A DNA stretch of 57,094 nucleotides from a virus (taxonomy: Duplodnaviria; Caudoviricetes), in the IMG/VR virus record IMGVR_UViG_3300037502_003174, positions 1 through 57,094 of that record; one strand, written 5' to 3'. The translations under genes and the position numbers were made by a program. This document shows positions 7,782 through 57,094 of the stretch, piece after piece (positions within the stretch are counted from its first letter, which is position 1; each line of letters opens with the position of its first letter). Under the pieces are notes generated by a model, which was not told where the DNA came from, did not search any database, and saw nothing but the letters and a program-made list of their open reading frames with translations.

Positions 7782-9770
7782 TCAGAGCGCTGACACCGCT
7801 TCCAGCGGCCCGAGGGCGCCGATCTCGCTCGACCCACGGCGGATCACCCGGCCCGTCGCGTTGCCGGTGACCGGGCGCCCCGTGCCGCGCTCCCCGTTGC
7901 GGACCGCCGCTTTCCCCTGCGCCCGAGCGATCTCGTGGCCGTCCGCCTCGATCACGGTTTCTCCGACGTTCACCTCGATCGCGCTTTCGCCGAGGTCCAC
8001 CTTGACGTTCGCCCGCTCCCGGGCCTTCGCGGCGTTCATACTGGCCGAAGAGTTACGGACGGTGTCCTCGACCTGCTTGCTGAGGTCCCGGCGGAGCGTC
8101 GCGAGGGTCCCCGCCCCGAAGTCGGTCCCGCCGAAGATCGCGCGCGCCCCGGGGATGGCGTCGACCATCGCGCCAAACGAGCGGATCAGCAACTCCATCG
8201 CGCCGAGCACGAGGCCGATCGCGCCGGAGACGAACGAGGCGACGATGCCGCCCACGCCGCCGAGGAGGAAGGTCGCGAAGCCGCCCTCGGTGCCGGCCAG
8301 CATCTCCCCGATGCCCCGGCCGATCATGAAGATCGACGCAAGAAACGGTTCTACGATGCTGATCGCGATGTCGACCATGGCGAGGAACTGCGTCCCGAGG
8401 GCGCCGAGCAGGACGATCCCGCCCCCGACGACGGCGCCGATGACCTGCCCCAGCGCGACGGCGGCAAGGCTCAGGCCCTCCATCGACCGGGCGTCGAACG
8501 CCTCGCCCCATGCCAGCCGCACCGACTCGATCGCGGGCATGATCCAGCCGCTGAGGACGTTGTACAGGTCCCACCCGCCGAGCGCGGCGAACGCGAGACC
8601 GGCGCCCAGCGCCTGGACGCCGCCAACGCCCATCGCGCCGATCGCAGTGAAGATCGGCCCGAGGCCGGACAGGGCGAGCGCGACGAGGCCCGCGGCCGCG
8701 CCGACGGGGACAAGGACGGCGGCGAGCGCCCCGAAGCCGATCACGAGCTTCGCCACCTGCGTCTGTCCGCCCGCGCCCAGCGAGTCCCACCACGCGCCGA
8801 GCCGGGTCATCATCGGGCCGACGGTGGAGGCCGAGAGGCGATCGAAGGCGCCCGCCATCTCGTCGACCGCCCGGACGACGATCGGGGAGATCGAGGACAC
8901 GCGCCCCGCCAGGCCGTCGAGGGCGGCGCCGAGCCGGTCGTTGAGACGCGCGCCGATGGTCGTCAGGGTCATGTCGAGCTGGTCTCTGAACGTCGAAAGC
9001 CGGCCGGTGAACGTCGTCGACAGCGCTTGCACCAGGTCGCGCCCGCCGGTGAGGCGCTGGATCCGGCTCTGGATCTCCGCCTCGACCGCGTCCATGTAGG
9101 CCTTGGAGCCCGCCGCGCCGGCGCTGGTGAACTGCTCCATCTTCATCGCGAACCCGGTGAACTCGGTCATACGCGCCATCCCGCCGCCGCTGAGGGCGTC
9201 GTTGAGGGCGAGCGCCGCGTCGCCGACCGTGCGCGAGGGGTCGATCGCCGCCATCGTCTCGGCGATCTTCAGGAGGCGCATGTTCGCCTCCACGTTGTCG
9301 CCGGTGATCGCCAGCATTCGCTGGCTCGCCTGGATCAAGTCCGCCTCGCCGAACGGCGTGCGCGCTGCCTCCTGGCGGATGTCGTTGATCATTCGGCGAG
9401 CGGTCGCAGCGTCGCCGAGGAACGTCTCGAACCCGACCATGTTCTGTTCGAGGGTCGCGGCGAGCTCGGACGATCGGGCGCCGGCGAACCCGAACGCCAA
9501 CCCCAGCGGAGCGAGGGCGGCGGTGATCATGCCCAGGCCGGAAGCGACCCCGCTGACGTGCGTCTGAAGGCCTGCGAACACGCTGGACGCTCCAGCCGCC
9601 TCCCGGCCGAGCCCGCCCATCCGCTGGGAGCCGACCTTGATCCGCCCGTCGAGGCCGCCGAGCTGCCCGGCGAGGCCCTCCACCGCCTTCCCGGCCCGGT
9701 TGATCTCGGCGATGCCCTTGTCGGCGGAAAACAGGAACTCCGCCCCGATGCCCCATTCCTCGCCCGCCAT
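7782..9770 (-). CDS. Tape measure protein
   Basis: FETFLGD...AARTPF, STTFTGRLSTFRD, Ala/Gly-rich hydrophobic helices. Confidence 0.9.
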   Translation of the reverse strand: MAGEEWGIGAEFLFSADKGIAEINRAGKAVEGLAGQLGGLDGRIKVGSQRMGGLGREAAGASSVFAGLQTHVSGVASGLGMITAALAPLGLAFGFAGARSSELAATLEQNMVGFETFLGDAATARRMINDIRQEAARTPFGEADLIQASQRMLAITGDNVEANMRLLKIAETMAAIDPSRTVGDAALALNDALSGGGMARMTEFTGFAMKMEQFTSAGAAGSKAYMDAVEAEIQSRIQRLTGGRDLVQALSTTFTGRLSTFRDQLDMTLTTIGARLNDRLGAALDGLAGRVSSISPIVVRAVDEMAGAFDRLSASTVGPMMTRLGAWWDSLGAGGQTQVAKLVIGFGALAAVLVPVGAAAGLVALALSGLGPIFTAIGAMGVGGVQALGAGLAFAALGGWDLYNVLSGWIMPAIESVRLAWGEAFDARSMEGLSLAAVALGQVIGAVVGGGIVLLGALGTQFLAMVDIAISIVEPFLASIFMIGRGIGEMLAGTEGGFATFLLGGVGGIVASFVSGAIGLVLGAMELLIRSFGAMVDAIPGARAIFGGTDFGAGTLATLRRDLSKQVEDTVRNSSASMNAAKARERANVKVDLGESAIEVNVGETVIEADGHEIARAQGKAAVRNGERGTGRPVTGNATGRVIRRGSSEIGALGPLEAVSAL

Positions 9771-13908: not shown

Positions 13909-14352
13909 TCAGAGCGTCTTGATCACGCTGTCGATGGAGCAGGAGTAGACGATCTCGGTCGCCTCGGTGGACGTCTTGTCGAGGTCGCCCAACGACCACT
14001 TGGTCGGGAACATCCCGGCGAGCGCGTAGATCGCGACCGGGACGTCGTCAGCGCCCATGACCTCGACGGTGGCGGCGCGCTTGTAGCCGGGCGATCCCGC
14101 CTGCGACTGCACCCACCAGGCATCCCAGGCCGCGGCTTCGACGCTGTGGTGGACGTAGCCGGAGACGTCGGCGGTGCTCGCCTTGGTGTGCCCGGCCGAC
14201 TGCATGGTGCGATCGGCAAGCTCCACCGTCTCAAGCTCGCTCTCGAGCCCGGCGAACTTGGAGGCGTAGAACGGCGGGAGCCCCGCAACGGTCACGCGGA
14301 ACTTGGAGCGCGGCGCGGCGCCCGGCAGCACTTCGCCCTTGATGTTGCTCAT
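13909..14352 (-). CDS. Tail tube protein (gp19-like)
   Basis: KFRVTVAG, YKRAATVEVM, FPTKWSLGDLD; follows the sheath gene. Confidence 0.9.
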   Translation of the reverse strand: MSNIKGEVLPGAAPRSKFRVTVAGLPPFYASKFAGLESELETVELADRTMQSAGHTKASTADVSGYVHHSVEAAAWDAWWVQSQAGSPGYKRAATVEVMGADDVPVAIYALAGMFPTKWSLGDLDKTSTEATEIVYSCSIDSVIKTL

Positions 14353-17081
14353 GCGACCTCGCTATCGGCGGACACGCCGCCCGGGTTGACGGTGAAGACG
14401 ACGCGCTCCGAGGTGCCCCGGATGGTGAAGGCGATTTCGATGTGGAGCTCGCCCGCGGCGCGGGTGGCGGCGGTGTTGTTGGACGAGTCGACCTTGATCG
14501 ACACCTGGTCCTCAAACCCGGAGCCGCGAGCGTCGTCGAACCAGCCCGCCCGGTACCACGGGAGGAACAGGTCGCGGACGACGCGGCGCGCCTCGGCGAA
14601 CAGGGAGACGGAAAGCGGCTGGAACACCAGGCTCTCCGTCTCGGTCAGCAGCACCCGGCCGATGTGGGACAGCGCGATCCGCTTGTGGGCGAACGGAAGC
14701 GTCCCGTTGTACCCGGCGATCCGGTCGCCCCAGCTCTCGATCTGCGGGCCGCGCTTGCGCAGCGCGATCAGGCCGTAGGAGTTGAGGGCTTCGAGGTCCA
14801 GCGACCGATCCCCGGTCGGGAGGTCGAGGGCGATCGGGTTGAGGCCGAGCCGCGCGAAGGCGATCGCGTGGCTGTTGGCGTCGGACACCTGGCGGGCGCG
14901 GGCGCCGAGGAGCAGGCCCGTCGCGGTGCACGTGTAGGTGCCGGGCCGCGCCACGTTGACCGCGAACGGGTCGCGGATCTTGACGTAGGACGGGAAGAAC
15001 GTCACGCTGTAGTCTTGGTCCGCCCCGACCGCGAGGTTCGTCGCGTGTTCGGCGAGCGCCCCGGCCTCGGTGGTGGTGGCGTCGTCGATCTCGCAGACCG
15101 CGAGGGCGTTCTTGGCGGCGGCCCAGGCGATCAGCGCCTGTTGCACGGAGGCGGTGGTCACGCCGGGGACGGCGGCCACGATGGCGCCCGTGGAGAGGCT
15201 GTCGAGGGACGACAGGATCGCGCTCGGCCCGATGGCAAGGGCGGCCTCGTAGTCGGCGGCGGCCAGGGAGGCGTAGCCGTCGACGCCGCCGGAGAGCTCC
15301 TGCGCCCACTGGAGGCGGAGGATCTGGCCGTCGGTGCCGGCGTAGCTGTTGCCGTTCGTGAACCCGAGCTTGCTGTTCAGCCCGCCGTTCCCGACGACGA
15401 TCGTGGCGGCCGATCCGTAGTCCTGCAGCGCGGTCACCTTGATCTTGTTGTCGCTGGTCGCCTCAAACACCACCGTCTTGTCGGCGGCGACGCTCGACAC
15501 GCGGGACAGCTCCTGCGCGTTCAGGTCGGCCGCGAGCGCGGCGGCGGTCGTGGTCGCGCCCGAAAGCGACGAGGTGAGGGTGATGTTCCCCCGCCCGCCG
15601 ACGTTCAGGATCACGGTCTTGGTGCCGCTGCTGAGGTCGTAGGTGCCGGCGACCGACCCGGTGAAGGTCGGCGGCTGCGCGACGTCGATATCGCTGCCGG
15701 GGCTCGACTCTAGGGTCACCGCCTTGTGGGTGTTGCCGGTGATCCGCCACTTGAGCCGCTGGTTGCCCTGGCTCGGGGCGGCGGCGGCGTACAGGTAGCC
15801 CCGGCGCCCGGCGAGGCCGCTCGGGAGCGCCTGCACGGTGAAGACGATCACGGTGTCGGTGTCCGCGCCCGTCCCGCCGGCCCGGACGGTGAACCCGGGG
15901 AGGAAGGCGTTCGGAGCGGCATACGCGCTGCCCACGGTGCCACTCGGGAGGTTCCGGGCGGTGCCGCCATCGGCGTAGGTGGCGCTCACGTCGAACGCGG
16001 TGGAGCTCGTGAACGTGAGGGTCACGGTGCAGGGCTTCGGATCGGTGCCCCAGGTGACATCGTTGATGATGTCGATGTACGGGTTCCCCGTGCCGGATCG
16101 CGTCCAGCCGACGGTGAGCAGCTCGATCGTGCTGCTGACGGTCGTCCCCGGCTTCACGATCCCGGCCCAGTTGGCCGGGCGGTTCAGGGCGGCGTTCGGG
16201 TCGCCGCTGAAGGCCGCGTCGTCGACCTGGACCTCGTAGTTGATGGCGTCCTGGCTGAGCTGCGTCTTCCAGTAGGCGCCGTCTTCGTCGTCGAGGTGGA
16301 GGCCGTCGTAGCTGCGGACGGTGGCGCCGTCGCGCAACACCCCGAGCCCGAAGCGCTCAGCATCGGCGGCCGCGTCGTAGATCTCGACGGCGAGCCCTTC
16401 GCGGTTGCCCGTCAGGTCGCTCACGTTGTCGAGCCACAGGACGTAGCGCCCATCGGTCCCCGAGGAGAGGCCGCTCGGGAACCCGCCCGCGACGGTCAGG
16501 ACGCCGGCGGTGGTGTTGCTCTCGACGGTGCCGACCCAGGTGGCGTTGTCGTAGGGGAACGAGATCGAAGCGCCCTTCCAGGCGTCCTTGACCATGGTGT
16601 GGGCGAGGTCGATCGTGGACCCGCTGATCGCGCTGGAGAGCGTCACGTCACCGGTCGTCCGGTTGCGGCGCCCGCCGCGGCGCCCGCCGTTGTCGGCGGA
16701 GACGGTCGCGATCACGGGGGCCGGGGTGACGGCGGAGATCTCGACCACCGACGTCGCGGCGGCGCGGGAGCGGACCGGGAGGGAGGCGGAGACCTGATCG
16801 CCGTCGGCGACGCGGGCGCACCACAGCTCCCCGGCGCCCTGGCTCATCGAGAACCAGTGCTGCGCGGCAAGCGGCGCCTGCGACTCGCGGGTGATCCCGC
16901 CGAAGATGCGGCTGAACTCGGCGAGCGAGGCGCAGCGGACAACCTCGTCGAGCGGGCCGGAGCGGAACGCCCCGACGAGAACGGACGTCCCCAGGGTCCC
17001 GGGGCGGCGCGGCTGATCGGCCGGCATCTCCCGGACCTGGGATCCGGGGGCGCGGATAGCGCCGAACACACGGATACTCAT
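14349..17081 (-). CDS. Contractile tail sheath protein, enlarged (910 aa)
   Basis: VLVGAFRSGPLDE, LSGGVDG, SWGDR, VFQP...LF, GELHIEIAF..SERVVF. Confidence 0.92.
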   Translation of the reverse strand: MSIRVFGAIRAPGSQVREMPADQPRRPGTLGTSVLVGAFRSGPLDEVVRCASLAEFSRIFGGITRESQAPLAAQHWFSMSQGAGELWCARVADGDQVSASLPVRSRAAATSVVEISAVTPAPVIATVSADNGGRRGGRRNRTTGDVTLSSAISGSTIDLAHTMVKDAWKGASISFPYDNATWVGTVESNTTAGVLTVAGGFPSGLSSGTDGRYVLWLDNVSDLTGNREGLAVEIYDAAADAERFGLGVLRDGATVRSYDGLHLDDEDGAYWKTQLSQDAINYEVQVDDAAFSGDPNAALNRPANWAGIVKPGTTVSSTIELLTVGWTRSGTGNPYIDIINDVTWGTDPKPCTVTLTFTSSTAFDVSATYADGGTARNLPSGTVGSAYAAPNAFLPGFTVRAGGTGADTDTVIVFTVQALPSGLAGRRGYLYAAAAPSQGNQRLKWRITGNTHKAVTLESSPGSDIDVAQPPTFTGSVAGTYDLSSGTKTVILNVGGRGNITLTSSLSGATTTAAALAADLNAQELSRVSSVAADKTVVFEATSDNKIKVTALQDYGSAATIVVGNGGLNSKLGFTNGNSYAGTDGQILRLQWAQELSGGVDGYASLAAADYEAALAIGPSAILSSLDSLSTGAIVAAVPGVTTASVQQALIAWAAAKNALAVCEIDDATTTEAGALAEHATNLAVGADQDYSVTFFPSYVKIRDPFAVNVARPGTYTCTATGLLLGARARQVSDANSHAIAFARLGLNPIALDLPTGDRSLDLEALNSYGLIALRKRGPQIESWGDRIAGYNGTLPFAHKRIALSHIGRVLLTETESLVFQPLSVSLFAEARRVVRDLFLPWYRAGWFDDARGSGFEDQVSIKVDSSNNTAATRAAGELHIEIAFTIRGTSERVVFTVNPGGVSADSEVA

Positions 17082-18361
17082 GGTTCCTCCAGAGCAGTTG
17101 AGACGGTCCCTGATAGGACCACGGTGGACACGGAGAGCGGACCGGCCGAGTAGGACACCCGCCACGTCGCGGCCGACTCGGGGACGCCGGCGCTCAGGCC
17201 CTCGTTCCCGGTTCTGAACGCGCTGATCTCGCGGACGTCGATCACGGCTCCCGTCTCCTGGCTGACGAGGGAGCGATACCGCGCCGGGCCAAGGTAGGCG
17301 CGCAGGGAGGTCGCGATCTCGCGGAGGTCGTCTTGGAGCTCGGCGATGATGCGGACGCCGAGCGTCGTCGAGAGGCGCGTTTCGCCGGCGTAGCGGCGGG
17401 CGGTGACGGGCGAGGCGGCCGTCGAGCGAATGAGGGCGTAGCCGTCCGGCGGGCCGATCTCCGGGTCGCCCTGGAGGCTCAGGAGCACCGTTGGCGTCGC
17501 CTGGATCGCGCTGACGTCGCGGTGGTTGTGGACCGCCACGCGGAGCGAGTACCGGCCCTCAAACCGCAGGATGTGGCCGTTCAGGTGGTCGTGAACGGTC
17601 GGCGTCCACGTCGCGTCAACACCGGCCACAAACGTTCCGGTGTGGGTCGACTCCTCGTTGTCGAGATGGATCACCGCGTCGGCGTCTGTCCAGATGTACG
17701 ACGTTTCGCCTTGGTTCAACGACTGCGGGGCGCCGTTGCCCTGGCACTCCCATTCCACCGCGCCGAAGGCCCTCACGGCGGCCAAGGCGGCGCGGAGGGT
17801 CGCGAGCATGTCCCGCTCGGCGCTGCCCTTCCGGGTGCCATAGGCGACGCGCGCGCCGTAGAACGCCGGAGTCACGTCGTCATCCGTCGTCGCGAGCGCG
17901 CACAGGAACGCGATCCGGCGAGCGGTCACGGGGTGCGTCGCGAGGTTCGCCTCGATCTGGGCCTTCGTCGACCAGTGCGAATCCGTCGTCGCGGTCGCCC
18001 AGGCCGAGCCCGTCCAGTACCGCAGGGTCGTCCCGTCCCACGTCCGGTAGGCGGTCGACGTCCCGGTCGGCTTCGACTCGAACAGCTCCACGGCGACGAG
18101 CGAGCGCATCCCGTCGGCCCGCAGGAGGGGCGTGCGGGCCCACCGGCGGGTGCTGTCGACCGGGTAGGGCGCGGCGAGGACGGCGCGGGCGGGGGCGCGC
18201 TCGTTGCCCGGCAGGTCCCAGCCCTGGACCGCTGCGGGTTGTCCGATCTCCCAGGCGACGGCCGAGGACGACCGGTCGATGTACTCCGAGCCGTTGCGGA
18301 GCAGGTAGCTGGCCGGGTCGAGCCACAGGTCGCACACGCGTTCGTCGAGTTGCCGCGTCAT
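17078..18361 (-). CDS. Putative tail terminator/neck protein
   Basis: Position between virion morphogenesis gene and sheath; ATGA overlaps. Confidence 0.55.
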   Translation of the reverse strand: MTRQLDERVCDLWLDPASYLLRNGSEYIDRSSSAVAWEIGQPAAVQGWDLPGNERAPARAVLAAPYPVDSTRRWARTPLLRADGMRSLVAVELFESKPTGTSTAYRTWDGTTLRYWTGSAWATATTDSHWSTKAQIEANLATHPVTARRIAFLCALATTDDDVTPAFYGARVAYGTRKGSAERDMLATLRAALAAVRAFGAVEWECQGNGAPQSLNQGETSYIWTDADAVIHLDNEESTHTGTFVAGVDATWTPTVHDHLNGHILRFEGRYSLRVAVHNHRDVSAIQATPTVLLSLQGDPEIGPPDGYALIRSTAASPVTARRYAGETRLSTTLGVRIIAELQDDLREIATSLRAYLGPARYRSLVSQETGAVIDVREISAFRTGNEGLSAGVPESAATWRVSYSAGPLSVSTVVLSGTVSTALEEP

Positions 18362-19002
18362 CCCTTGGTCCCCCGCCAGTTGGAGCCAGCGCCGGCGCCG
18401 CCCAGGGCCTTGCGTACCGCGATCCGCCACTCCTCGCGAGCGATCCGCTTCATGGCGGGGCTCGTGAGCGGCCGGCGGAGGAAGGGGCGGCCCGGGATGA
18501 TCCACAGGTGCCCGGCGGGGCGGCTGCGGGATGTGGCGAGCTGCGCGGCGGCCTCGGTGGTGACCTTCTTCGACGCGCCCCGGCGCTTCTCTCCGAGCTT
18601 CTTCGCCACCTGAGCCATGACAGCGGCGCGAACCTTGGGGTGCTTCCTCACGTCGATCACGGCGCCTTCGTGGAGGATGCGCGCGATGTTCAGCTGAGCG
18701 GGCGTCTGCTTGAGGACGCCGATCCGCAGGCGGTACCACTCGGGGACCGAGTAGGTGATCGACTGGATCAGGTCGCCCTTGTCGACGAGCGGCGCCGAGC
18801 TGCCCTTGATCGCGATGGTGATCGGGCTGTTCGGGGCGTAGTCCCGGGCGCGGATGCTCTTGACGACGAGGGCGCGACCCTTCAACCCGATCCGGGCGTT
18901 CGCCTTCGCCACCTCCTTGTGGATCGCGGCCTTCACGCGGGCGGGGTCCAGCGCGCGCATCAGGGCGCGCCAGTCGCCGGTCAGCTTCGCGCCGGCGCTC
19001 AC
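18358..19002 (-). CDS. Virion morphogenesis / tail completion protein
   Basis: APNSPITIAIKGSSAPLVDKGDLIQSI, IPGRPFL. Confidence 0.85.
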   Translation of the reverse strand: MSAGAKLTGDWRALMRALDPARVKAAIHKEVAKANARIGLKGRALVVKSIRARDYAPNSPITIAIKGSSAPLVDKGDLIQSITYSVPEWYRLRIGVLKQTPAQLNIARILHEGAVIDVRKHPKVRAAVMAQVAKKLGEKRRGASKKVTTEAAAQLATSRSRPAGHLWIIPGRPFLRRPLTSPAMKRIAREEWRIAVRKALGGAGAGSNWRGTKG

Positions 19003-19433
19003 AGCGACTCGGCGGCCCGGCGCCCCGGGCGGTCGGCGACGTCGAGGATCACGAGATCGCGCGCGGCGGCGGAGCCCAGGCCGAGCTTCCCGCTGCGTCG
19101 GACGCGGACGACGTACCAGCCGACCGTGTCCGTCCAGGTCGCGCCGCGAGCGATCGACTTCAGGCCGGTGATCCGGTCGCCGTCGGCGGGCGTCCACCCG
19201 GAGGCGGCAACGTCGGAGGCGCGGAGGGCGATCTCGGCGACGAGCGGGAGCTCGGGGCCCGCGGCGTCCGGTTGGCGGCCGTTGCGGACCTGCTCGTTGA
19301 CCTGGCCCTGGATCTCGACCGTGTCGGCGCGCGCGATCCGCCGCACCGGCTCCCCGAGGGCGTCCACCTGGGTCCCGGAGCGGTCGATCGGGGCGACCCG
19401 CACCCACTCGCGGCCGATGAGGGTCGGGCGCAT
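18999..19433 (-). CDS. Head closure protein (putative)
   Basis: Synteny; D..GEP...GDRI pattern. Confidence 0.6.
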   Translation of the reverse strand: MRPTLIGREWVRVAPIDRSGTQVDALGEPVRRIARADTVEIQGQVNEQVRNGRQPDAAGPELPLVAEIALRASDVAASGWTPADGDRITGLKSIARGATWTDTVGWYVVRVRRSGKLGLGSAAARDLVILDVADRPGRRAAESL

Positions 19434-19681
19434 CAGCCCTCCCGGGAGCGACGCCGGCGCGGGCTCTCGACAGGGGCGGGAGCGTCGCCAGCGGGCGCAG
19501 GGGCGGCCGGGGCGGGCAGGACGGCCGGCGGGTCGTCCACGGTCAGCAGCGGGCCCAGGACGGCCGCCAGCGCGCGCACGGCGGGGCGGATGGCCTCGGG
19601 GACCAGCGTCCAGACGCCGGGGCGAAGGGGCAGGCCGGCGACCTCGCGGGGGCGGGAGGCGGGGGACAGGCGGACGCGCAT
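19433..19681 (-). CDS. Small hypothetical protein
   Basis: Coupled start/stop with both neighbours. Confidence 0.55.
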   Translation of the reverse strand: MRVRLSPASRPREVAGLPLRPGVWTLVPEAIRPAVRALAAVLGPLLTVDDPPAVLPAPAAPAPAGDAPAPVESPRRRRSREG

Positions 19682-20439
19682 CAGATGCTCCAGGGCGAGC
19701 GACGATCGCGGCGGCTGCGGGAGACGTAGACCGCCGGCGGGCGCCGGTAGTGGGCCAGCGTCTGATCGATAGCCCGGTCGCCGGTCAGGCCGCCGGAGAC
19801 CGCGAGCGGGGACAGCTTGTAGTGCCTGCCCTGGGTCGTCTCTTCGAGCACGCGAGCGGCGCGAGCGTCGTCCTGCGAGGCGACGTCATCGACGGGGATC
19901 AGCGTCCGGCAGCACAGACGGGCGATGCAGTCGAGGATCAGCTCGGGGGTGGACCCGTCGGCCTCGACGTAGCCCCAAGTGGCGGTGACGGAGACGTTCC
20001 CGATCCCGTCCGGCCAGCGGCCGGAGGCGCCCCGGTAGCGGATCACGGGGTCGAGGCGGGGATCGTCCGGGCCCCAGCACGCACCCTCGTTGACCTCCAC
20101 GAGCTCGAGGTCGACGTCGGTGTCGTCGCTCTCCGAGTCGGAGGCGCGCAGGGTGATCGCGGTGACGCCGCCGCCGGCGAGCTGCCCAGCGGAGACGACG
20201 GGGAGCGGGAGCGGGAGGCGGTTCCCGCCGGTCCCGTCGACGGTGAGAGTCGCGGCCACGGGTCGGAACACGCGGCCGGTGTAGCCGTGGAGGTAGGCGG
20301 CCGCGAGCTTCAACGCGGACAAAGCCTCCGCGTCGGTCACGGTCGAGTAGCTGTTACCCATGCGGGTGCGGAGGGCCGTCAGCGCCGTTGCCTGGACGCT
20401 GCCGAAATACTTCCAGGCGTCGAACGCAGGGAACAGCAC
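19681..20439 (-). CDS. Head-tail adaptor
   Basis: AAYLHGYTGRVF, WPDGIGNVSVTATWGY, IDQTLAHYRR. Confidence 0.8.
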   Translation of the reverse strand: MLFPAFDAWKYFGSVQATALTALRTRMGNSYSTVTDAEALSALKLAAAYLHGYTGRVFRPVAATLTVDGTGGNRLPLPLPVVSAGQLAGGGVTAITLRASDSESDDTDVDLELVEVNEGACWGPDDPRLDPVIRYRGASGRWPDGIGNVSVTATWGYVEADGSTPELILDCIARLCCRTLIPVDDVASQDDARAARVLEETTQGRHYKLSPLAVSGGLTGDRAIDQTLAHYRRPPAVYVSRSRRDRRSPWSI

Positions 20440-22090: not shown

Positions 22091-23410
22091 TCAGGCGCCG
22101 AACGAGGTCGTCGAGACGATGATGCCGTCCTGGATGCTCGCGGCCTCCGGCCGGTACACGAGCGGGCACATCTCGACGTAGAAGTCCAGGCGGAACCTGT
22201 CCGCTTCCTGTTCAAACTTGTTGAACATGCGGAAGCGGCTGGAGTCGATCACGTTCACGAGGTTCCGGGGATTCGTGAGGAGGATCGACGCGCAGTCCGC
22301 GATGTCGAGGGTGTAGTCGCTGGCCGTGGTGCTGATGCTGCCCTGGCCGAGCGCGCCCACGGTCGACACGAAGTTGTTGGTCCCGTCCCAGGTGACCGTC
22401 CGGGTCTCGCTGAGGCCGGTGGAGTTGCGGGTCACCTTGATCTTCCGGCCCGCGTTGCCCGCCGCGGCGCCGCCGAGAAGGGTGTCGACGCGGAGCTTGA
22501 TGATCGTGCCGCTCGGGTTGGTGACGGCGTCCGCGTTGGTCGTCGAGCCGTTCAGGGTCGCAAAACCCTGGGTGCGGCTCATCTGGGGCACCTGCACCGG
22601 CTGGATGCCGAGGATCTGGGCTTGCTGGCGGCTGAGCAGCGCGTCGTTCGCCACCTGCGAGGCCGAAGCCCAGGCGGACGCGAAGGCGTACTGAGCGTTC
22701 GCCGCAAGCATCGGCGAGATCATCCAGCGGAGGTTGGGATCGTTCTGGTAGCGCTCGGGCAGGTTGTCGTACGCCGACTGGAACGCGGCGATCGAGTAGG
22801 CGGAGCCGCGGGTCGTCGAGAGGACGTTCCCGGCGTCGCGGATCTGCTTGAGCCAGCCGTCCTTGGTGCCCAGGAAGCGATTCTCGCGGGTCGACGCGCC
22901 GGACGCGAGGTCGGTGTCGCCGTTGATCGCAAGCTGCGCGATGTTGCTGCCGAGCCTGATCGCGATCAGCTTGCGCAGCTTGCCGATGAAGTCGCCCTCA
23001 CCGCTGGCCGCCGCTTCGCGCACGTCCTCGGGGGTGTAGAACACGGTCCCGTGGAACTTCGCGGTCGTGTACTCGATCTTCGCCGTGGTCGCGACGTTTG
23101 ACGCGGTCTGCGTCTCGCCCTCGGTCGCCGGCTCCATGAGCCAGTCGCCCATGGTCATGTCGGTGAACTCGCCGGAGCGCTGGTCGACGAACTTCATCGA
23201 CGTGGCGCCGAGCCAACCGCTGTCGTCGGCCGCGTCCACGATCAGCCCGTGGACCGCCTTGCGGTTCATGAACTGGCCGCCGGCGCTGAGCGTAGAGGTG
23301 GTGTTCACGTCGTCGGACTTGCCGACCGGGAGGGACTCGGCGCCGGGGAGGCCGATCGCCTTGTTGACGGCGTTCAGGGACGCCAGAAGCTGGGCAGTGG
23401 AGCGGCTCAC
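22091..23410 (-). CDS. Major capsid protein (HK97 fold, XkdG/P2-like) with an inserted domain
   Basis: LAINGDT, DGWLKQ, LPERY, ILGIQPVQVPQM, ILLTNPRNL. Confidence 0.92.
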   Translation of the reverse strand: MSRSTAQLLASLNAVNKAIGLPGAESLPVGKSDDVNTTSTLSAGGQFMNRKAVHGLIVDAADDSGWLGATSMKFVDQRSGEFTDMTMGDWLMEPATEGETQTASNVATTAKIEYTTAKFHGTVFYTPEDVREAAASGEGDFIGKLRKLIAIRLGSNIAQLAINGDTDLASGASTRENRFLGTKDGWLKQIRDAGNVLSTTRGSAYSIAAFQSAYDNLPERYQNDPNLRWMISPMLAANAQYAFASAWASASQVANDALLSRQQAQILGIQPVQVPQMSRTQGFATLNGSTTNADAVTNPSGTIIKLRVDTLLGGAAAGNAGRKIKVTRNSTGLSETRTVTWDGTNNFVSTVGALGQGSISTTASDYTLDIADCASILLTNPRNLVNVIDSSRFRMFNKFEQEADRFRLDFYVEMCPLVYRPEAASIQDGIIVSTTSFGA

Positions 23411-24651
23411 TTGGCACCTCCGAGGATCGCCGAACGGAGCGCGGCGTCGACGTCATCCGCCTTGGAGGCGGTGTCGCGGTTGGTTTCGATGCGGCCGGCG
23501 TTGCCGGCGGGGACGGCGCGCTCCATGGCGGAGACGCGGCCGGCGATGCCCTCGATGGACTTCCCGACGTTGGTCAGGACGTCGATCAGGCCGGGCTGGC
23601 GGAGCTCGGCGCCGTCCGCGGACTTGGCGACGACGCCCTTGTCGTCGGTGACGGGGGCGCCGGCGAGGACGGATTCGAGCTCGGCGATGCGCTCCGCCTG
23701 CTTGGCGACGGTGGCCATGATCGGCGCCATCGCGCGGTCGATCATCGCCTGGAGGCTGGCAGCCTGGAGGCCCGCGCCAGCGTCGGCGATCTCGCCCTCC
23801 AGCTGCCCGGTGGGACGCGCCGGCTGGTCGGGGGTGATCGACGCCTTGGCGGCGACTTCCGCGGCCTTGGCCACGACGTTCTGAAGTTGGGCGTCCGTCG
23901 CGCCGGGGTTGGCGGCCTTGTAGGCCGTCACCGCCGCGGTGACGACCGCGTTGATTCGGTTCTGGTCGAGCGCCATGTGCTCGTCCTCCTGGTTGTCAGC
24001 CGCTTTCGCGGCGGTGGTGGAACTGTCGGCGGCGTCGAGCACCGCTTGGAGCGCCGCGATCGCCGAAGTGACGGCGGCTTTGTTCTTGGTGCTGAGGACC
24101 TTCCCGGCCTTCGCGACGAAGACGGCGGCGCAGTCGTCGGCCTCGCGGTGCGCCTTGGCGACCATCTCCAGGCCGAGCGGGTTGGCGGCTGGGAGTTGGC
24201 TCACAAGGTAGGTCGCGGCGTCGGAAAACCGCTTGCGGATCTCGGCCGGCTTGTCGGTGAGCATCGGGTCTTCCATGACCGACTCGACCGACTCACGGAG
24301 CGCCGAGGTGACGTTCCACCAGCGATCCCAGAACACCTGAGGCGCCAGCGCCTCGGCGAAGGACTTCGCCGGCTCGTCCTCGCTCTTGGCGGTGGTGTCC
24401 GTCACCGTGCCGCCGGTGAAGAACGCGAGGAACCGGCGCATCATGCCGACTTCGGCCGGGGTGACGCCCATCGCGCCGCCGTTCAGCTCGGGACCCTCGT
24501 TGGCGCCGAGGTCGGCCTTCGCCACGCCGAACTGGCGCCCGTTGGCGCCCCGGGGAACGAGGGAGACGACCGAAACGTCGGGATCGCCCATGATGGTGAC
24601 GACGGGCTTGCCGTCGGGGCCCTTGAGGGCCGCGAACTTCTCTGGCTTCAT
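23407..24651 (-). CDS. Scaffold protein with N-terminal VSLVxxGAN protease-associated segment
   Basis: DVSVVSLVPRGANGRQF, KAGKVLSTKN, Ala-rich coiled-coil C-terminus. Confidence 0.75.
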   Translation of the reverse strand: MKPEKFAALKGPDGKPVVTIMGDPDVSVVSLVPRGANGRQFGVAKADLGANEGPELNGGAMGVTPAEVGMMRRFLAFFTGGTVTDTTAKSEDEPAKSFAEALAPQVFWDRWWNVTSALRESVESVMEDPMLTDKPAEIRKRFSDAATYLVSQLPAANPLGLEMVAKAHREADDCAAVFVAKAGKVLSTKNKAAVTSAIAALQAVLDAADSSTTAAKAADNQEDEHMALDQNRINAVVTAAVTAYKAANPGATDAQLQNVVAKAAEVAAKASITPDQPARPTGQLEGEIADAGAGLQAASLQAMIDRAMAPIMATVAKQAERIAELESVLAGAPVTDDKGVVAKSADGAELRQPGLIDVLTNVGKSIEGIAGRVSAMERAVPAGNAGRIETNRDTASKADDVDAALRSAILGGAK

Positions 24652-25151
24652 GCGTTCTCCGCAGGGTACACCGGTACAACCGGCGTCTTGGTGACGCTGC
24701 CCCAGAAGCTGACGGCGTTGTACGTCCCGTCCTCGATCGCGGTCCACTCAGCGGACCCGGGATCGACCTGGAGGACGACGACCCAGGCTCCGGGCCAGTA
24801 GTTGGGGCTCGCGACCTCGGGGCCGTTCACGAAGGACTCGACGACGCGGACCGTGGTCACCGGCTGGAGGTCGTGGCGCTGGTCGATCTTGCGGTAGTCG
24901 GCGAGGTAGCGCCGGGCCATCCGGGCGACGTCCTCCGCGAGCATCGCCTCCCCGTGCGAGTCAATCGGAGTCAGGGCGCGATCGGCGAGGTCGGGCGCGG
25001 TCGCGGCGGCAAGCTCAGCGCTTCCGAGCTTGGCTTCTAGCGCCGAGAACTGCGCGAACGCCTCGGGGTCAAACGGGAGGTAGACCTCCACCCAGATGAG
25101 GCCCTCGCTCATCGATCGTTCGGACTTGCGGACCCGAGCGAAGACCGGCAA
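24648..25151 (-). CDS. XkdF-like prohead serine protease
   Basis: IDSHGE, IDQRHD, VVESFV, GAWVV, IEDGTYNAVSFWG; TTG after GGAGG. Confidence 0.85.
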   Translation of the reverse strand: MPVFARVRKSERSMSEGLIWVEVYLPFDPEAFAQFSALEAKLGSAELAAATAPDLADRALTPIDSHGEAMLAEDVARMARRYLADYRKIDQRHDLQPVTTVRVVESFVNGPEVASPNYWPGAWVVVLQVDPGSAEWTAIEDGTYNAVSFWGSVTKTPVVPVYPAENA

Positions 25152-27568: not shown

Positions 27569-27780
27569 TCGGCCTCCAACGGCGGCGGGGAGCGGTCGCG
27601 GCGTCCGAGTGCACGGCGATTGGACGCGCACACCCGGCAGTCACAGCGCCCGGGCGAGGACTTCGCGGCGACGTGCAGCAGCCGCGCGATCGTCGCCTCG
27701 CTCCAGCCGCGAGCGCGGAGGGTGGCTTCGGTGCGGCGGAGGTTCCGGGCCGCCAGCGCCCGCCGTTTGTCCCGGGTCAC
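27565..27780 (-). CDS. Small basic Cys-containing protein
   Basis: GTGA overlaps on both sides; CDCRVCASNRR. Confidence 0.5.
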   Translation of the reverse strand: MTRDKRRALAARNLRRTEATLRARGWSEATIARLLHVAAKSSPGRCDCRVCASNRRALGRRDRSPPPLEAE

Positions 27781-29564
27781 GCGCGGCCCTCCGGCGACTC
27801 CGACGCGGCGGCCTCCATCTTCGCCACCAGGGCCCGGCCCTCGCGGATGACGCCCAGGGCGATCCCCATCGCCTCCTCGGCGGCCGCCTTGGCGGCGACG
27901 GCAACCTCGGCCTGAGCGGGCGGCGTCTGCGGGTTGGCGGCGGCCTCCGCGGCGGCGGCAGCGACGGCGGCGGCTTCCTGGCGCTTCGCTTCGGCGACCG
28001 CCACCACCTCGGAAAGCGGCGCGTTCGGGTCGGCGCCCATCGTGAGGAGGGCGGTCGTCAGCGCCAGCGGGCGCTCGCCCCACGGCTCCGCGATCAGCGC
28101 CTGCGACTGGCCGGTGAGCTCGTTCGCGAGGCGGATCAGCGCGTTGGGGCTCGCCCCGCCGCCGTCGATCAGTGGCTTCATCCCGGCGAGCTTCTCCGCG
28201 TCGTCGCTCGTCGAGGCGCCCCGGAAGCGGACGGCCCAGCGGTTGATCCCCAGCGCCGGGAAGATCCGGCCGTTGATGAGGTCGGCCCACCTGCTCTTGC
28301 GCAGAGGAACGAACACCTGCTCCTCGGCCACGGCGCGCGCGGTGTTGGCGGCGGCGCGGCTGTAGTCCTCCGAGCCGCCCCAGTAGATCGGCGGGAGGCG
28401 GAAGCACTCGTCGATCTGCTTGCTGGCCTGCCGGATCAGGCTCTCGTCGCCCTTGTAGAGCTCGGCCGGCAACACGAAGGCGACGTCCTCCAGCGAGAAC
28501 CGGGGCGCCGTCTCGCGGGTGGTTTCGTCGAGGGGATCGACGGCGGCCTTGTTGGCGTCGGCCTCCAGCGCCACGACGCTCCATGCGTTGCCCGACCCGC
28601 GGCCGCGGCTGTCGAGCTCGCCCAGGAACTTCTTGTAGGACGCGGCGTTCCAGGCTCCGCCCGCGATCATCGCCACCTTGAGCCCGATCGGCGCGTCGAG
28701 GAACCAGGAGAGGATCGTGTCGATCGCCTCGCGGCCCGCCCGGGAGTAGGGCGCCGCCGGGATCCAACGGGGGACGCCGTAGGCTCCGGCCGGATGGTAG
28801 ATGCGGACGTGGATCATCTCGGTGGCGTCGGTCCCGTCTCCGGCGGCCGCGTCCATGTACTTCCCGGTGAGGGCGGAGAGCGGCCGGGGATCGCCGAACT
28901 CCTTGAAGTATACCTGCCGGTTGTCCACGATCTGGATGTACCGCCGGAAGCGGCGCATCTGCGGGACCATGACGATCTCGCCGCTCGTCGGGTCGCGGAA
29001 GGGCACGTCAACCCGCACCGGCGCGCTCAATGGCGCCAATCGGACCGTGAACGCCTGGACGTGGTTCAGGCTCGCAACCTCGCCTTTCGCATTGCGCAGG
29101 ACCTCGATGTAGCCGTTGCCCTGCCCCTCGCAGTCGACGTCGACCGGAAACGCGACGGCGCCAAACCCGCCTTGGGCGCAGGTGTCGAGGAGCAACGCCG
29201 CCCGGGCCTTCTCCGCCGCGGCATCGGCCGGAGGCGGGATCGGCTGGCCGGACTCATCGGCGGTCGGGAAGAGCGGCTCCAGGTCCCAGCCGAAGCCCGT
29301 CAGGTTCGTCGCCATGGCTTCGACGCGCGACGACAGGGTGACGCTCTCGTCGACCGCACAGACCAGCGTCCAGGGGTCGTAGGGCGGGGCGATGGCCTCA
29401 CCCGTCGAGAACAGCCCTCCCCAGGTGTTTTCCGTCGGAGGCAGGATGCGCGAGGCAGCGATCTCGGGGAGGGCGGAGCCTTGGATCCTGGCCTGCTTAG
29501 ACCCGCCGTCGTCCGCCTTGCCGACCGTCCCGGCGCGCACGCCGACGTTCTCGAACTCGCCCAT
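27777..29564 (-). CDS. Portal protein (PBSX-type)
   Basis: PPYDP, GNGYIEVLRN, YGVPRWI, FRLPPIYWG..EDYSRA. Confidence 0.93.
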   Translation of the reverse strand: MGEFENVGVRAGTVGKADDGGSKQARIQGSALPEIAASRILPPTENTWGGLFSTGEAIAPPYDPWTLVCAVDESVTLSSRVEAMATNLTGFGWDLEPLFPTADESGQPIPPPADAAAEKARAALLLDTCAQGGFGAVAFPVDVDCEGQGNGYIEVLRNAKGEVASLNHVQAFTVRLAPLSAPVRVDVPFRDPTSGEIVMVPQMRRFRRYIQIVDNRQVYFKEFGDPRPLSALTGKYMDAAAGDGTDATEMIHVRIYHPAGAYGVPRWIPAAPYSRAGREAIDTILSWFLDAPIGLKVAMIAGGAWNAASYKKFLGELDSRGRGSGNAWSVVALEADANKAAVDPLDETTRETAPRFSLEDVAFVLPAELYKGDESLIRQASKQIDECFRLPPIYWGGSEDYSRAAANTARAVAEEQVFVPLRKSRWADLINGRIFPALGINRWAVRFRGASTSDDAEKLAGMKPLIDGGGASPNALIRLANELTGQSQALIAEPWGERPLALTTALLTMGADPNAPLSEVVAVAEAKRQEAAAVAAAAAEAAANPQTPPAQAEVAVAAKAAAEEAMGIALGVIREGRALVAKMEAAASESPEGRA

Positions 29565-30654: not shown

Positions 30655-32445
30655 TCAGGCGGCGGCCCGGTCCTCGCGGTCGGCGTCGGCCCAGGAGTCG
30701 CCCACGGCGGCGGGGCGCGTCCCGATCTGGCGGCGGCGCTCGGCGTCCCGGGAGCGGACCCACCGGCGGAGGGCGGCGACGGCCATCCAGAGCGCCATCA
30801 CACAGTCGTCGTGCGCCTCGCGACCGAGGCCGTGGAGCTCGGCGATCACCCGGTCGACGCGCTTCTCCTCGGCGGGCGTCGACCAGGCGAACGACAGGAG
30901 CCCGCCCTCGAACAGCGCGGACATGCTCGGCACGCCCTCGTACAGCGACGACTTGCGCTTGGTAGTGGTGTGCCCGCGCAGCGGGATCCCCAGGCGCGCC
31001 AACGGCTCGCGGAGGTCAACCTCGAACGCCCGTTGCGCCGCGTTGTTTTCAACGATGACGTACCCGGGGCGGATGGCCTCCGCTTCGTCGATGATCCGCG
31101 CCCGGATCGCGCTCGGGGTCAGCCCTCGGCCGCGCCAGATCCGCCGCACCTCGATCCGGTCGTCCAGGGTCAGCCCGACCGTGACGCCGACCGTGTAGTC
31201 GGAGTCGGCGCGCTCGGCGGCGGCCGAGGTGTCCACGATCGCGAGGTCCCAGGCGGTGATCGTGACCTGGTACTCCGCCTCCCCGGCCTCGGCGGCGAGG
31301 TCGAGGGCGTCCCAGGACGAGAGAGCGAGGTCGAGGGTGATCGAGCGGAGCGCCTCGTAGGCGAACCCGCGCCCCCGGCCGCGAGCCTTGGCGCCCTGCA
31401 ACCACCCCCACTGAAACATCGCCGTCGCGTCGTCGATCGGCTGGTTCAAGTATTCGCGTTGGAACGCCAGCGACCCAATCTTGCGCCGGCGGGCCGCGAG
31501 CGCGTCGGCGCTCCAGTAGTCCGGCATCAGGATGTGGTCGCCGTCGATGCTCGGGACGTTGGCGCCGTCGACCATCCGCCACCGGGCGGCGTAGCGCCGC
31601 GACCACCACTCCGGGGACTTCTCGCGGTCGATCAGGTTCGCGAGGAGCGAATCTTGGTGGAGCACCGTCCCAATCATGCAGGTCAGGAGGTGGCCTTCGA
31701 TGCCGAGGGGGATCAAGACTTCGTTGAGCCACCGGTGCAGTTCGGCCCGCGCGTCCTTGGACCGGACGTCGAGGTCGTTTTCGAGGTCGTCCACGAGGAT
31801 GAGCGTCGGGCGGCGGTTGCGGCGGTTGACGCCTCGGATCTGGCCCCCGGCGCCCAGGGCGCGGACGAGAACGCCGTCCGACGTCTCGAACAGCTTCGTG
31901 CCCCACGGCTTCTGACTCTTGCCCTTGGAGCGGCCCGCCGCGGGGACGAGGCTCCCGTAGTCGCGGCGCAGGTCGTCGTTCGACTCCAGCTCGGCGCGGA
32001 GGTCGGAGACGATCGCCTCGGCGAGGCTCGCGGTGTCCGAGACGACCACGATGAACGGCGGGCGCCCCCGAAAGTGGGGCATCTCGCGCCATTCGTGGAT
32101 CACCCGGAGAAGAAACGCCTTCATAAGCGTCGTTTTGCCGTGGCCTCGGGGGCAGGCGAGCGCGTAGGAGTCCTGGACCCGCCCCGCGATCGGCCGCTGC
32201 ATGACCATGGCGTCGAGGTCGGCGGCGATCTCCGCCTGGAACGGGGCCGGAGCGGCGCTGAAGGCCTCCGGCATGTAGCGGTACGCCCAGCGGAGGAGCC
32301 TTGCCTTCGCCGCCCGGCGGTCGGCCTCGTCTTCGGCGAGTAGCGCCTCCATCCGCGCGCGCCGCTCCGCGGCCGTGACATCGGCCCGGATGCGGTTGGG
32401 GAGCTGGCGGGCGGCCGAGCTGGGACGGGCGACGGCGGCGGTCAT
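30655..32445 (-). CDS. terL: Terminase large subunit
   Basis: Walker A PRGHGKT, Walker B ILVDDLE, GTVLHQDSLL, FQREYLNQP, HDDCVMA. Confidence 0.95.
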   Translation of the reverse strand: MTAAVARPSSAARQLPNRIRADVTAAERRARMEALLAEDEADRRAAKARLLRWAYRYMPEAFSAAPAPFQAEIAADLDAMVMQRPIAGRVQDSYALACPRGHGKTTLMKAFLLRVIHEWREMPHFRGRPPFIVVVSDTASLAEAIVSDLRAELESNDDLRRDYGSLVPAAGRSKGKSQKPWGTKLFETSDGVLVRALGAGGQIRGVNRRNRRPTLILVDDLENDLDVRSKDARAELHRWLNEVLIPLGIEGHLLTCMIGTVLHQDSLLANLIDREKSPEWWSRRYAARWRMVDGANVPSIDGDHILMPDYWSADALAARRRKIGSLAFQREYLNQPIDDATAMFQWGWLQGAKARGRGRGFAYEALRSITLDLALSSWDALDLAAEAGEAEYQVTITAWDLAIVDTSAAAERADSDYTVGVTVGLTLDDRIEVRRIWRGRGLTPSAIRARIIDEAEAIRPGYVIVENNAAQRAFEVDLREPLARLGIPLRGHTTTKRKSSLYEGVPSMSALFEGGLLSFAWSTPAEEKRVDRVIAELHGLGREAHDDCVMALWMAVAALRRWVRSRDAERRRQIGTRPAAVGDSWADADREDRAAA

Positions 32446-33982: not shown

Positions 33983-34733
33983 CGGACACCCCGGGCGGCG
34001 TGAGGTGGGCGTCGGCGGGGGAGCGGTAGCCGGAGGGCTCGGCGGCGTTGATCGTCGCGGCCTCCAGGGTGACCGTGGTCGGCCGCAGGTCGGCCGGCGT
34101 GATCTCGGGAATGACGCAGCGCATCAGCGGATGGGTGCTCCGGGAGGTGGGGTTCTTCGGGGCTGAGTGGATCCCGGTGCCCCCGCCGAGCGCGGGGGCC
34201 TCCGGGGTCAGGCAAGCCGTGTGGCGCATCCCGTCGGACTCCGCCCGGACGCCCGGGCCGACGTCAAACTCCGGCTCAGCGGGCGCGGGGCGGACCGGTC
34301 CGCCACCAGACCGGCCGATCTCGACGAGGCGTTCGTACTCGGGGGTCAAGCGGTAGATCGTCACGCCCCGCCTGGCGTCCCGGTCGCGAATGACGCCGGG
34401 CCCGACCTCGATCCTCCGCCTGCCGTCCGACACGTAGGTCAGCGCGCGGTGCTCGGCGGCCAGCTCGCGCACGCCGCGGGCCAGGTCCCGCCAGTCCGCG
34501 GCATCCAGTCCCAGAGCGGCGGCGACCTCGGTCAGCTCGTTTCGGAGCGACGTGGCCTCGGCCACGAGCTGCTCCGTCTCCGGCGTCAGCCGGAACACCG
34601 CGATCCCCTCCGAGGTGTCGCACTCGACGCCCGGATCGAGCTTCACGCTCTCCAGCGCCGCGAGCTTGGCCCGCTCCGGGGCGTAGTCGTAGTCGTAGTT
34701 CTCGCGGGGATCGCCCGCGCAGTCTCCGTTCAT
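33972..34733 (-). CDS. Hypothetical protein with three internal (G/D)PGV...LTPE repeats
   Basis: AGGAGG RBS; paralog of 34849-35085. Confidence 0.7.
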   Translation of the reverse strand: MNGDCAGDPRENYDYDYAPERAKLAALESVKLDPGVECDTSEGIAVFRLTPETEQLVAEATSLRNELTEVAAALGLDAADWRDLARGVRELAAEHRALTYVSDGRRRIEVGPGVIRDRDARRGVTIYRLTPEYERLVEIGRSGGGPVRPAPAEPEFDVGPGVRAESDGMRHTACLTPEAPALGGGTGIHSAPKNPTSRSTHPLMRCVIPEITPADLRPTTVTLEAATINAAEPSGYRSPADAHLTPPGVSDGR

Positions 34734-34852
34734 CCTTCCTCCTTCGTCTCGGCCTTCTCGGCCTTGTTCCACCGGTTGTCTTTCCATTGCGCCCCACACC
34801 ACGGGCAGAACGCGATCTGAAGAAACGCTTCACGCGCCCAGTCGATGATCAC
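34730..34852 (-). CDS. Truncated paralog of 35082-35384 (40 aa)
   Basis: FLQIAFCPWCGAQWKDNRWNKAEKAETKEEG; GTGA/ATGA coupling. Confidence 0.55.
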   Translation of the reverse strand: MIIDWAREAFLQIAFCPWCGAQWKDNRWNKAEKAETKEEG

Positions 34853-35085
34853 CCAGGCCAGGTCACGGCGGCCAGCGACCGGACATGCCTGGGCAGGTCG
34901 CGCCAGTCGACCGAATCCAGGCCCAGGGCAGCGCCGATCTCGGTCAGGGCACCCAGGTAGGCCATCGCGTCGTTATCGGCGTTGAGCAGCGCCTGGAAGG
35001 TCAGATCCGCTCTCACCGGCCCGAGGTTGACGACCTCGTCGTTGTCGTTTTCCTCGCGGGGATCGCCCGCGCAGTCCTGGTTCAT
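34849..35085 (-). CDS. Hypothetical protein, paralog of 33972-34733
   Basis: MNxDCAGDPRE start; LTEIGAALGLDSVDWRDL. Confidence 0.7.
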   Translation of the reverse strand: MNQDCAGDPREENDNDEVVNLGPVRADLTFQALLNADNDAMAYLGALTEIGAALGLDSVDWRDLPRHVRSLAAVTWPG

Positions 35086-35384
35086 CCTTCCTCCTTCGTC
35101 TCGGCCTTCTCAGCCTTGTGCCACTGGTTGTCTTTCCACTGCGCCCCGCACCACGGACAGAACGCGATCTGCAGGAACGGCGCCGCCTTCGACCACCCCA
35201 CCATCGGGGCGGAGCGCCGAGACTCGCCCGGACGCACGAGGCGGGCGACGATCTGACCGACGCCCACGCCGTGGGTGGTCAGAAACTCCGAAGTCGCGGT
35301 CATCATGTCGCAGCACGCGCCCTCAGCGACCGGCGGGAAGCCCTCCAGCGACTTGAGCATCGCTGTCACGTCCGAGGCTTTCAC
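35082..35384 (-). CDS. Small zinc-binding protein
   Basis: CC...FCPWCG. Confidence 0.7.
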   Translation of the reverse strand: MKASDVTAMLKSLEGFPPVAEGACCDMMTATSEFLTTHGVGVGQIVARLVRPGESRRSAPMVGWSKAAPFLQIAFCPWCGAQWKDNQWHKAEKAETKEEG

Positions 35385-56430: not shown

Positions 56431-57094
56431 TCAGGTGGGAATCGCGGGGCCGAGGCGCCGCAGGTCAAGGGCGGAGTCGCCGTGGGGCGTGAGGAGCACT
56501 GGCCCGAACCGCAGCACGGCGCCAGAGCCGCAGGCGAACCAGACAGGGCCGGCGGAGACGGTGGGGGTCAGCGACGCGCGGAGCACCTCGCGGCCTTCGA
56601 TGACGACAACCACCTCGACGTCGCCGCCGGCGAGCGCGACCGCAGAGATCCGCAGGCGGTAGGAGACGTCGGCGACCAGGGCGTCGGCGGAGGCCGAGGC
56701 GACCAGCGTTGCGGAGCCGCCGGCCATCTCGTCGAGGGTGACCGTGCCGTCGAGGGCGAAGGTCAGCCGGAGGCCGTCATCAGGCGCGCCGAGCACTCCG
56801 ATCACGGCGTCTCCGGCGCCGATCTGGATCTCGGTCCAGAGCGTGTAGTCGGCGAGCGCAGCGTCGATCTCGGCGCTCAGGTCCAGGGCGGCGGTCGCGT
56901 TGGCGAGGCGGCGCCAGCCCTCGGTGATCGTGGTGCTGTCAGCGTTCGGGGTCGGACGACTCACGATCCGGCGGCCGGAGCCCGTCACGCTCCACTGGCG
57001 GAAGTCTCCGCCGTTGTCCACCACCAGGGCGCGCCGGATGTTGATCCGCTCGCCCATCGGCCGGCAGACGTCGAGCACCCGGGCGATGCGGGCG
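56431..57094 (-). CDS. Baseplate wedge / tail protein I-like, 3' part with a beta-rich (lectin-like) extension
   Basis: Continuation of the ORF starting at 653. Confidence 0.7.
   Translation of the reverse strand, partial: ARIARVLDVCRPMGERINIRRALVVDNGGDFRQWSVTGSGRRIVSRPTPNADSTTITEGWRRLANATAALDLSAEIDAALADYTLWTEIQIGAGDAVIGVLGAPDDGLRLTFALDGTVTLDEMAGGSATLVASASADALVADVSYRLRISAVALAGGDVEVVVVIEGREVLRASLTPTVSAGPVWFACGSGAVLRFGPVLLTPHGDSALDLRRLGPAIPT
56969..57094. repeat. Terminal overlap, right copy
   Basis: Identical to 7-132. Confidence 0.95.

Follow-up and report, generated by a model that had tools for sequence, protein, structure and literature searches.

Why should the head, the baseplate and a fibre of one phage carry the same small domain, and what would it do there? 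This question is raised by the IMG/VR record IMGVR_UViG_3300037502_003174 (57,094 bases, G+C content 72%), which was analysed over its full length and is called the window throughout. A preliminary description, made from the sequence alone, had pointed out that a segment of about 80 amino acids (aa) recurs in the major capsid protein, in the baseplate J protein and in a tail fibre-like protein. The three genes and their segments lie where it had placed them, all on the minus strand, the coordinates translate exactly to the peptides that it had quoted, and the 13-aa cores are found exactly at 22313-22351 (capsid), 1970-2008 (J) and 55774-55812 (fibre). The carriers and their copies of the segment, hereafter the module, are as follows.

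22091-23410, minus strand: major capsid protein, 439 aa, HK97 fold, P2 type
22298-22537, minus strand: capsid copy (aa 292-371), an insert with VPQM before it and ILLTNPRNL after it
653-2836 (longest open reading frame to 2959), minus strand: baseplate J
1955-2203, minus strand: J copy, flanked by WEYYD and the W..YWVRYR region
54967-56424, minus strand: module-bearing protein of a fibre/tailspike family, 485 aa
55762-56025, minus strand: strongly diverged fibre copy (aa 134-221)

It is near certain that these capsid, J and fibre proteins, which are otherwise unrelated, bear one homologous module. By BLASTP, the capsid and J copies are identical at 34 of 93 positions (37%, E 2e-6), and the fibre copy gives weak pairwise values (E 0.77 vs the capsid, 0.018 vs J). 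Relatives comprised 14 capsid proteins (39-89% identical to that of the window, 413-448 aa) and 32 other J proteins. Searched against 700 six-frame open reading frames (ORFs) of the window, a hidden Markov model (HMM) of 15 capsid segments retrieved the J copy at full length (E 2.3e-11) and, reciprocally, an HMM of 27 J segments retrieved the capsid copy (E 1.4e-17), the best unrelated ORFs staying at E >= 0.2. In the search with the module profile, the capsid copy was found at E 4.8e-32, the J copy at E 8.6e-27 (profile positions 1-79) and the fibre copy, through its C-terminal third, at E 1.2e-4. Shuffle controls gave maxima of 11.5 and 14.1 bits against real scores of 63.7 and 46.3 bits for capsid and J, and in all eight tests the real score stayed above that of each of the 1000 shuffles. 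With HMMs built, matched and controlled in this way, the shared module that had been proposed is borne out, and composition, which had been named as a possible source of the match, does not account for it. The HMM and profile searches of the window ORFs yielded exactly three copies and no fourth.

Regarding the capsid, the segment had been described as an insertion relative to XkdG/P2-type capsids, and this is supported by both sequence and structure. The nearest fold of this carrier is HK97, with the solved P2-type capsids; the capsids of P2 (gpN) and phiRSA1 (PF05125; PDB 7jw1, 7oz4), which represent its closest fold and sequence family, are without the module. VPQM and ILLTNPRNL are separated by 97 residues in the window capsid, versus four between VPYF and MLITKLENL in P2 gpN. 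Sequence profiles break off at this point: the profile alignment of the capsid to gpN stops at VPQM/VPYF, and the match to PF05125, at 22.2 bits for a cut-off of 27 (27.4 bits for the relative P0004, 89% identical to the window capsid), ends at the insertion (profile position 272 of 327). Structural alignments to the phiRSA1 and P4/P2 capsids, for their part, cover both sides of the insertion, from model residue 57 to 432-436, with target spans that are 77-82 residues shorter than the capsid model. The correspondence of ILLT with MLIT is drawn from the motif and from this fold alignment; a BLASTP comparison of the C-terminal 73 aa of the capsid with P2 gpN gave no significant match, and its C-terminal 69 aa matched no PHROG family and no Pfam family. 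The segment (22304-22537, aa 292-369), located 68 residues from the C-terminus, is thus near certainly a true insertion in the A-domain relative to P2 gpN and phiRSA1.

The second carrier is recognised as a baseplate J protein by phrog_219 (E 8.5e-18) and phrog_6 (E 2.8e-11), and its tblastn matches are genes annotated as baseplate J in Streptomyces phages; Pfam Baseplate_J gave no match to it. The protein is probably the 727-aa form (P0018) encoded at 653-2836, the longest ORF covering 653-2959. That the module is nested inside J, as had been reported, is confirmed, and the six most distant J relatives have different inserts at the same site. T4 wedge proteins are described as bearing extra insertion domains and the minimal Pam3 wedge as being without them (PMC9942802). 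Like the T4 gp6/gp7-class wedge proteins, J-type proteins therefore tolerate inserted domains; unlike the inserts of that class, the one in J is a module also present in capsid and fibre.

The fibre copy is the most diverged of the three: it retains LGQ, S and Y, the D being replaced by A. Its carrier, for which neither a Pfam nor a PHROG family was found, consists of a conserved N-terminal part of about 131 aa, the module and a variable C-terminal part. The first 131 residues are common to the window fibre and to P0154 and P0176 (E 3.7e-7 and 8e-6), and in at least 23 fibre-class proteins of 461-2274 aa, among the 150 matches listed, residues ~132-226 hold the module. An HMM built from the N-terminal 240 aa of 23 such proteins aligns without a break to aa 1-229 of the window fibre (E 1.3e-26), and an HMM of their domain only scores 31.5 bits on it, for a shuffle maximum of 6.9, and finds it among the window ORFs at full length (E 1.3e-7). 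The N-terminal alignment and the domain-only HMM indicate that the third copy is a diverged module at the orthologous position. As judged from these alignments, it is diverged but real, at the site where a fibre/tailspike family with the same N-terminus bears a canonical copy. Behind the module, the C-termini of the fibre-class relatives vary, with an endosialidase-like piece in P0154; P0105, itself outside the fibre class, has a beta-helix behind its module (105-191).

What kind of domain is it? Folded alone with alignment A2, which holds 25 capsid and J segments, the segment gave a confident AF2 model (predicted local distance difference test, pLDDT, 96.9; predicted template modelling score, pTM, 0.85) with six strands and an irregular loop of 16 residues before the last one. 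The module is therefore predicted to be an autonomous six-stranded beta domain. Its signature reads G..V.VT..TG.SE...N..T.G.LGQ...ST.A.DY. Across carriers, no variation is seen in a Gly that precedes strand 3, in the TG turn or in Glu, Asn, LGQ, Ser and Asp-Tyr, which lie mostly in the long loop; Q, S and Y, which all lie in this loop, are 97-100% invariant in every carrier class.

No known family accounts for it. Pfam had none for the window segment (over the 25 members of the alignment the best were Big_4, E 0.015, and Ig_3, E 0.046, two members each), and PHROG had none for any of the three segments. A profile search of the PDB returned only partial matches to Fab heavy chains (E >= 0.027). 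Foldseek gave no PDB match at E<=1e-3, the best being the N-terminal barrel of a V-ATPase at 0.064; a fold search of BFVD gave none at E<=1e-3 either (best 0.015), and the top score of 0.82 in the ESM Atlas feature search provides leads only. The fold matches are ambiguous between classes, the top ones being barrel-like. Since Pfam, PHROG, PDB and BFVD gave no match, the module is best described as a small beta barrel or sandwich without identifiable relative. It is a new, previously undescribed domain family, the grafting of accessory domains onto virion proteins being already known for phages. No paper on the module was found in the literature, which is weak evidence of absence because a sequence motif is not text-searchable. 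The top match of the search among representative proteins, P0054 (2018 aa), was rejected as a repeat-inflated false positive, its 21 partial stretches covering profile positions 9-56 only. P0054 contains about 20 immunoglobulin (Ig)-type repeats (C1-set, I-set), matched through a 'G.SV.V.C..TG'-like strand motif, and the weak Fab heavy-chain matches in the PDB are due to the same motif.

Among 1.84 billion representatives, profile A2 had 640 protein matches at E<=1e-3, of which 176 reached E<=1e-10, so that module carriers form at least 640 protein clusters (50% identity) of uncultured phages; tblastn with the capsid copy gave no match at E<=1 in 50,697 records of cultured phages. The module is present in 15/15 capsids of the clade (the window and all 14 relatives), of which it is the best-conserved stretch, and in 27/27 closer J proteins (the window and 26 of the 32 relatives), the six without it being the most distant ones. 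Within the clade, the segment is thus literally a standard element of close capsid homologues, which the preliminary description had held to speak against its proposal; relative to P2, it is still an insertion. Moreover, the order J, one gene, fibre is found in all five other loci in which J and its downstream DNA are available, one of them with a J only 26% identical to that of the window, and the module is in both proteins; in three of the five, the capsid-plus-J profile by itself suffices to find the fibre copy (E 7e-10 to 8e-8). J and fibre copies hence occur together in 6/6 genomes or loci, window included. The capsid copy stands alongside them in the window and in G001:C13, a 58.5-kb contig with all three copies. 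This three-carrier arrangement defines a lineage.

Regarding function, the reading that we favour, tentatively and short of even confidence, is that of an outward-facing, adhesin-like binding module, as suggested by analogy. It would point outward on head, baseplate and fibre, giving the virion one conserved binding function, and could weakly bind a common carbohydrate of the cell surface or matrix, which would aid reversible adsorption. The invariant polar/aromatic loop before the last strand (LGQ...S....DY) would be the putative binding site. This reading is favoured because the module is found on three exposed assemblies, because it precedes depolymerase-like distal domains in relatives and because its copy number varies; on the capsid surface, it would face outward by analogy only.

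The analogy is with Ig-like domains. Accessory domains of this type (Big_2, I-set, FN3) have reportedly been described on phage structural proteins. They are sporadic and often dispensable. Like them, the module is a beta domain of small size that has been added to virion proteins of several kinds (capsid, tail, fibre and baseplate) and is presumed to be exposed; its copy number varies. Unlike them, it is not of the Ig family by sequence, its six-stranded fold has ambiguous matches with barrel-like ones on top, and it is an internal insert and not an appended domain. For phage Ig-like domains, weak binding to surface carbohydrates has been proposed, without proof (PMC8718954, with reference to Fraser et al. 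2006, J Mol Biol 359:496), and the same is suggested here for the module.

Several observations weigh against a binding function. Unlike the sporadic Ig-like domains, the module is fixed throughout the clade and highly conserved there. Capsids have a mean pairwise identity of 55% in the module vs 43% in the rest, the module being more conserved in 84 of 96 pairs, and J proteins one of 40.5% vs 42.3%; the module is thus counted as no less conserved than the proteins that carry it. In close relatives it is never lost, which better fits a structural role, and the full-length capsid model is mediocre (pLDDT 64.5). Conservation and constancy of the module fit a structural clamp equally well.

Such a clamp is the main rival, less probable in our view and still to be reckoned with: inter-subunit contacts made by the module would stabilise capsomers, J dimers or fibre trimers or guide assembly, like the I-domain of P22 and domain 2 of the YSD1 tube protein. 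It agrees with a conservation above that of the capsid core, with the lack of any loss in 14/14 capsid relatives and in 26 closer J relatives, with the location of the module in the conserved virion-proximal part of the fibre, not in its variable distal part, and with the fact that no decoration protein was recognised among the ORFs adjoining the capsid gene. The module further occupies the same topological site as the P22 I-domain. The latter is not known to recur in tail proteins. One source places the I-domain at residues 222-345 of the 430 of the coat protein, in the A-domain and 85 residues from the end, and describes it as a beta-barrel forming inter-subunit salt bridges (PMC9965877). 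Both would be beta-barrel-type inserts in the A-domain of an HK97 fold shortly before the return of the chain to the P-domain, carried by every subunit; their chain positions are equivalent (68 and 85 residues from the C-terminus). They differ in size (about 80 residues for the module vs 124), and the carrier of the module is a P2-type capsid. No sequence relation was detected by hhalign of A2 against P22 gp5 (probability 0.08%, E 0.62, 7 columns), and the P22 coat is not among the best 50 VIA fold matches of the domain. However, one clamp for three unrelated lattices of differing symmetry would be unparsimonious, the residues invariant across carriers form a polar loop and not a hydrophobic patch, and nested and tandem copies suggest a freely projecting unit. 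Binding and clamping are in addition not exclusive.

The binding reading can be carried further, to a virion-wide recognition system with one ligand site (LGQ...S....DY), in hundreds of copies on the head and multiple ones on baseplate and fibre, by which either the whole particle would attach to a common host or matrix ligand or the copies would interact with each other to stow or position the fibres. The module would then be a dedicated, lineage-defining insertion domain that has evolved for pasting into loops, its own included. We consider this fuller scheme rather unlikely.

Another reading, of low probability, is that of a docking handle, through which the copies would bind one shared partner (a decoration or fibre protein) or each other (fibre to J, or a stowed fibre to the head). 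The same invariant loop in all three carriers and the co-occurrence of J and fibre copies in every genome or locus are in keeping with this idea; however, no candidate partner was identified, the adjoining ORFs being without family. A predicted complex of two module copies (score 0.14, mark 0.42) speaks neither for nor against self-association.

How did the module reach three carriers? A tree of 189 segments was built from 78 columns, and many of its forks are unresolved. On it, the three carrier labels (capsid, J and fibre) require 3 changes for a minimum of 2, and five groups require 13 for a shuffled mean of 71.9. Copies hence group by carrier protein and not by genome, with those of capsid and fibre class nearest to each other and those of J further from both. 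Fixation in close relatives and this grouping indicate that transfers between carriers are old. These sequence comparisons show that each carrier gained the module long ago and has passed it on vertically since, across a large clade of uncultured phages. It still acts as a unit that can be inserted, as further copies in some relatives show: in the J-like proteins P0064, P0135 and P0148 (881-901 aa), a complete second copy (profile positions 1-77) splits the first one into positions 1-50 and 51-77, so that a loop of the module has received the module itself, and P0055 (304 aa, no recognised class) has near-identical tandem copies at aa 110-173 and 179-255. These nested and tandem copies are what could be adduced for a currently mobile cassette, which would pass between the virion genes of a genome by exchange or gene conversion. 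This is very improbable, since identity between the window copies does not exceed 37% (capsid vs J) and the labels change so rarely along the tree. The word 'mobile' used in the preliminary description consequently holds on the evolutionary scale only, and not as worded, the module being fixed in 14/14 capsid and 26/32 other J relatives. Finally, the view that there is no real shared domain and that the likeness arises from chance or from S/T/G/A-rich composition, for which one could invoke the 72% G+C of the window, segments rich in G, A, S and T and the weak pairwise fibre matches, has a negligible probability in the face of the shuffle controls, the reciprocal HMM matches, the 176 representatives at E<=1e-10 and the confident fold predicted from the capsid-plus-J alignment, and is already refuted for capsid and J.

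Beyond the module and its carriers, the gene set of the window is that of a contractile-tailed myovirus, with virion genes nearly all on the minus strand.

30655-32445: terminase
27777-29564: portal
23407-24747: protease/scaffold
18358-20439: adaptor and neck
14349-17165, minus strand: sheath
13909-14352: tube
7782-9770: tape measure
3214-5241, minus strand: second fibre-like protein
653 down to 3, then 57093 down to 56431, minus strand: gene between J and fibre, spanning the window ends

The final 100 bases (56995-57094) duplicate positions 33-132; because of this duplication, one gene spans both ends and a circularly assembled genome is likely. The record is probably a complete genome, circularly assembled or terminally redundant. 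In IMG/VR its status is linear and 70% complete. The PHROG search assigned no family to the gene across the ends (first half 3-653, second half 56431-57094), whose place presumably matches that of gpI in P2. The sheath has 938 aa for the 496 positions of the phrog_23 profile, the match covering aa 43-926, and hence contains about 400 residues of additional domains, none of which is the module according to the HMM searches of the window ORFs. The second fibre-like protein (675 aa), upstream of the baseplate W/J genes, has several tail-fibre PHROG matches at aa ~100-330. Two adjacent plus-strand ORFs, 34167-34817 and 34849-35253, form a paralogous pair (51% identity over 122 aa, E 1.8e-22), which is the sole further protein similarity detected within the genome besides the end repeat.

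The nearest cultured relatives of capsid and J are from Streptomyces phages, with weak matches of ~28% identity, partial in coverage and outside the module. Together with a G+C content of 72%, these relatives hint at an actinobacterial host. The contig of one relative is binned in a metagenome-assembled genome of Victivallales, a possible binning artefact.

The module is a marker of a large clade of myoviruses, uncultured and probably actinobacterial, and offers an unusually clean case of one module fixed in head, baseplate and fibre at once. It extends the list of insertion domains of the HK97 fold, and provides a scaffold that is compact, confidently predicted in its fold and tolerant of loop insertion, its termini being adjacent. 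Should it bind a ligand, it would join the Ig-like domains as a second class of virion-coating adhesin; should it be structural, one clamp would be reused in three lattices.
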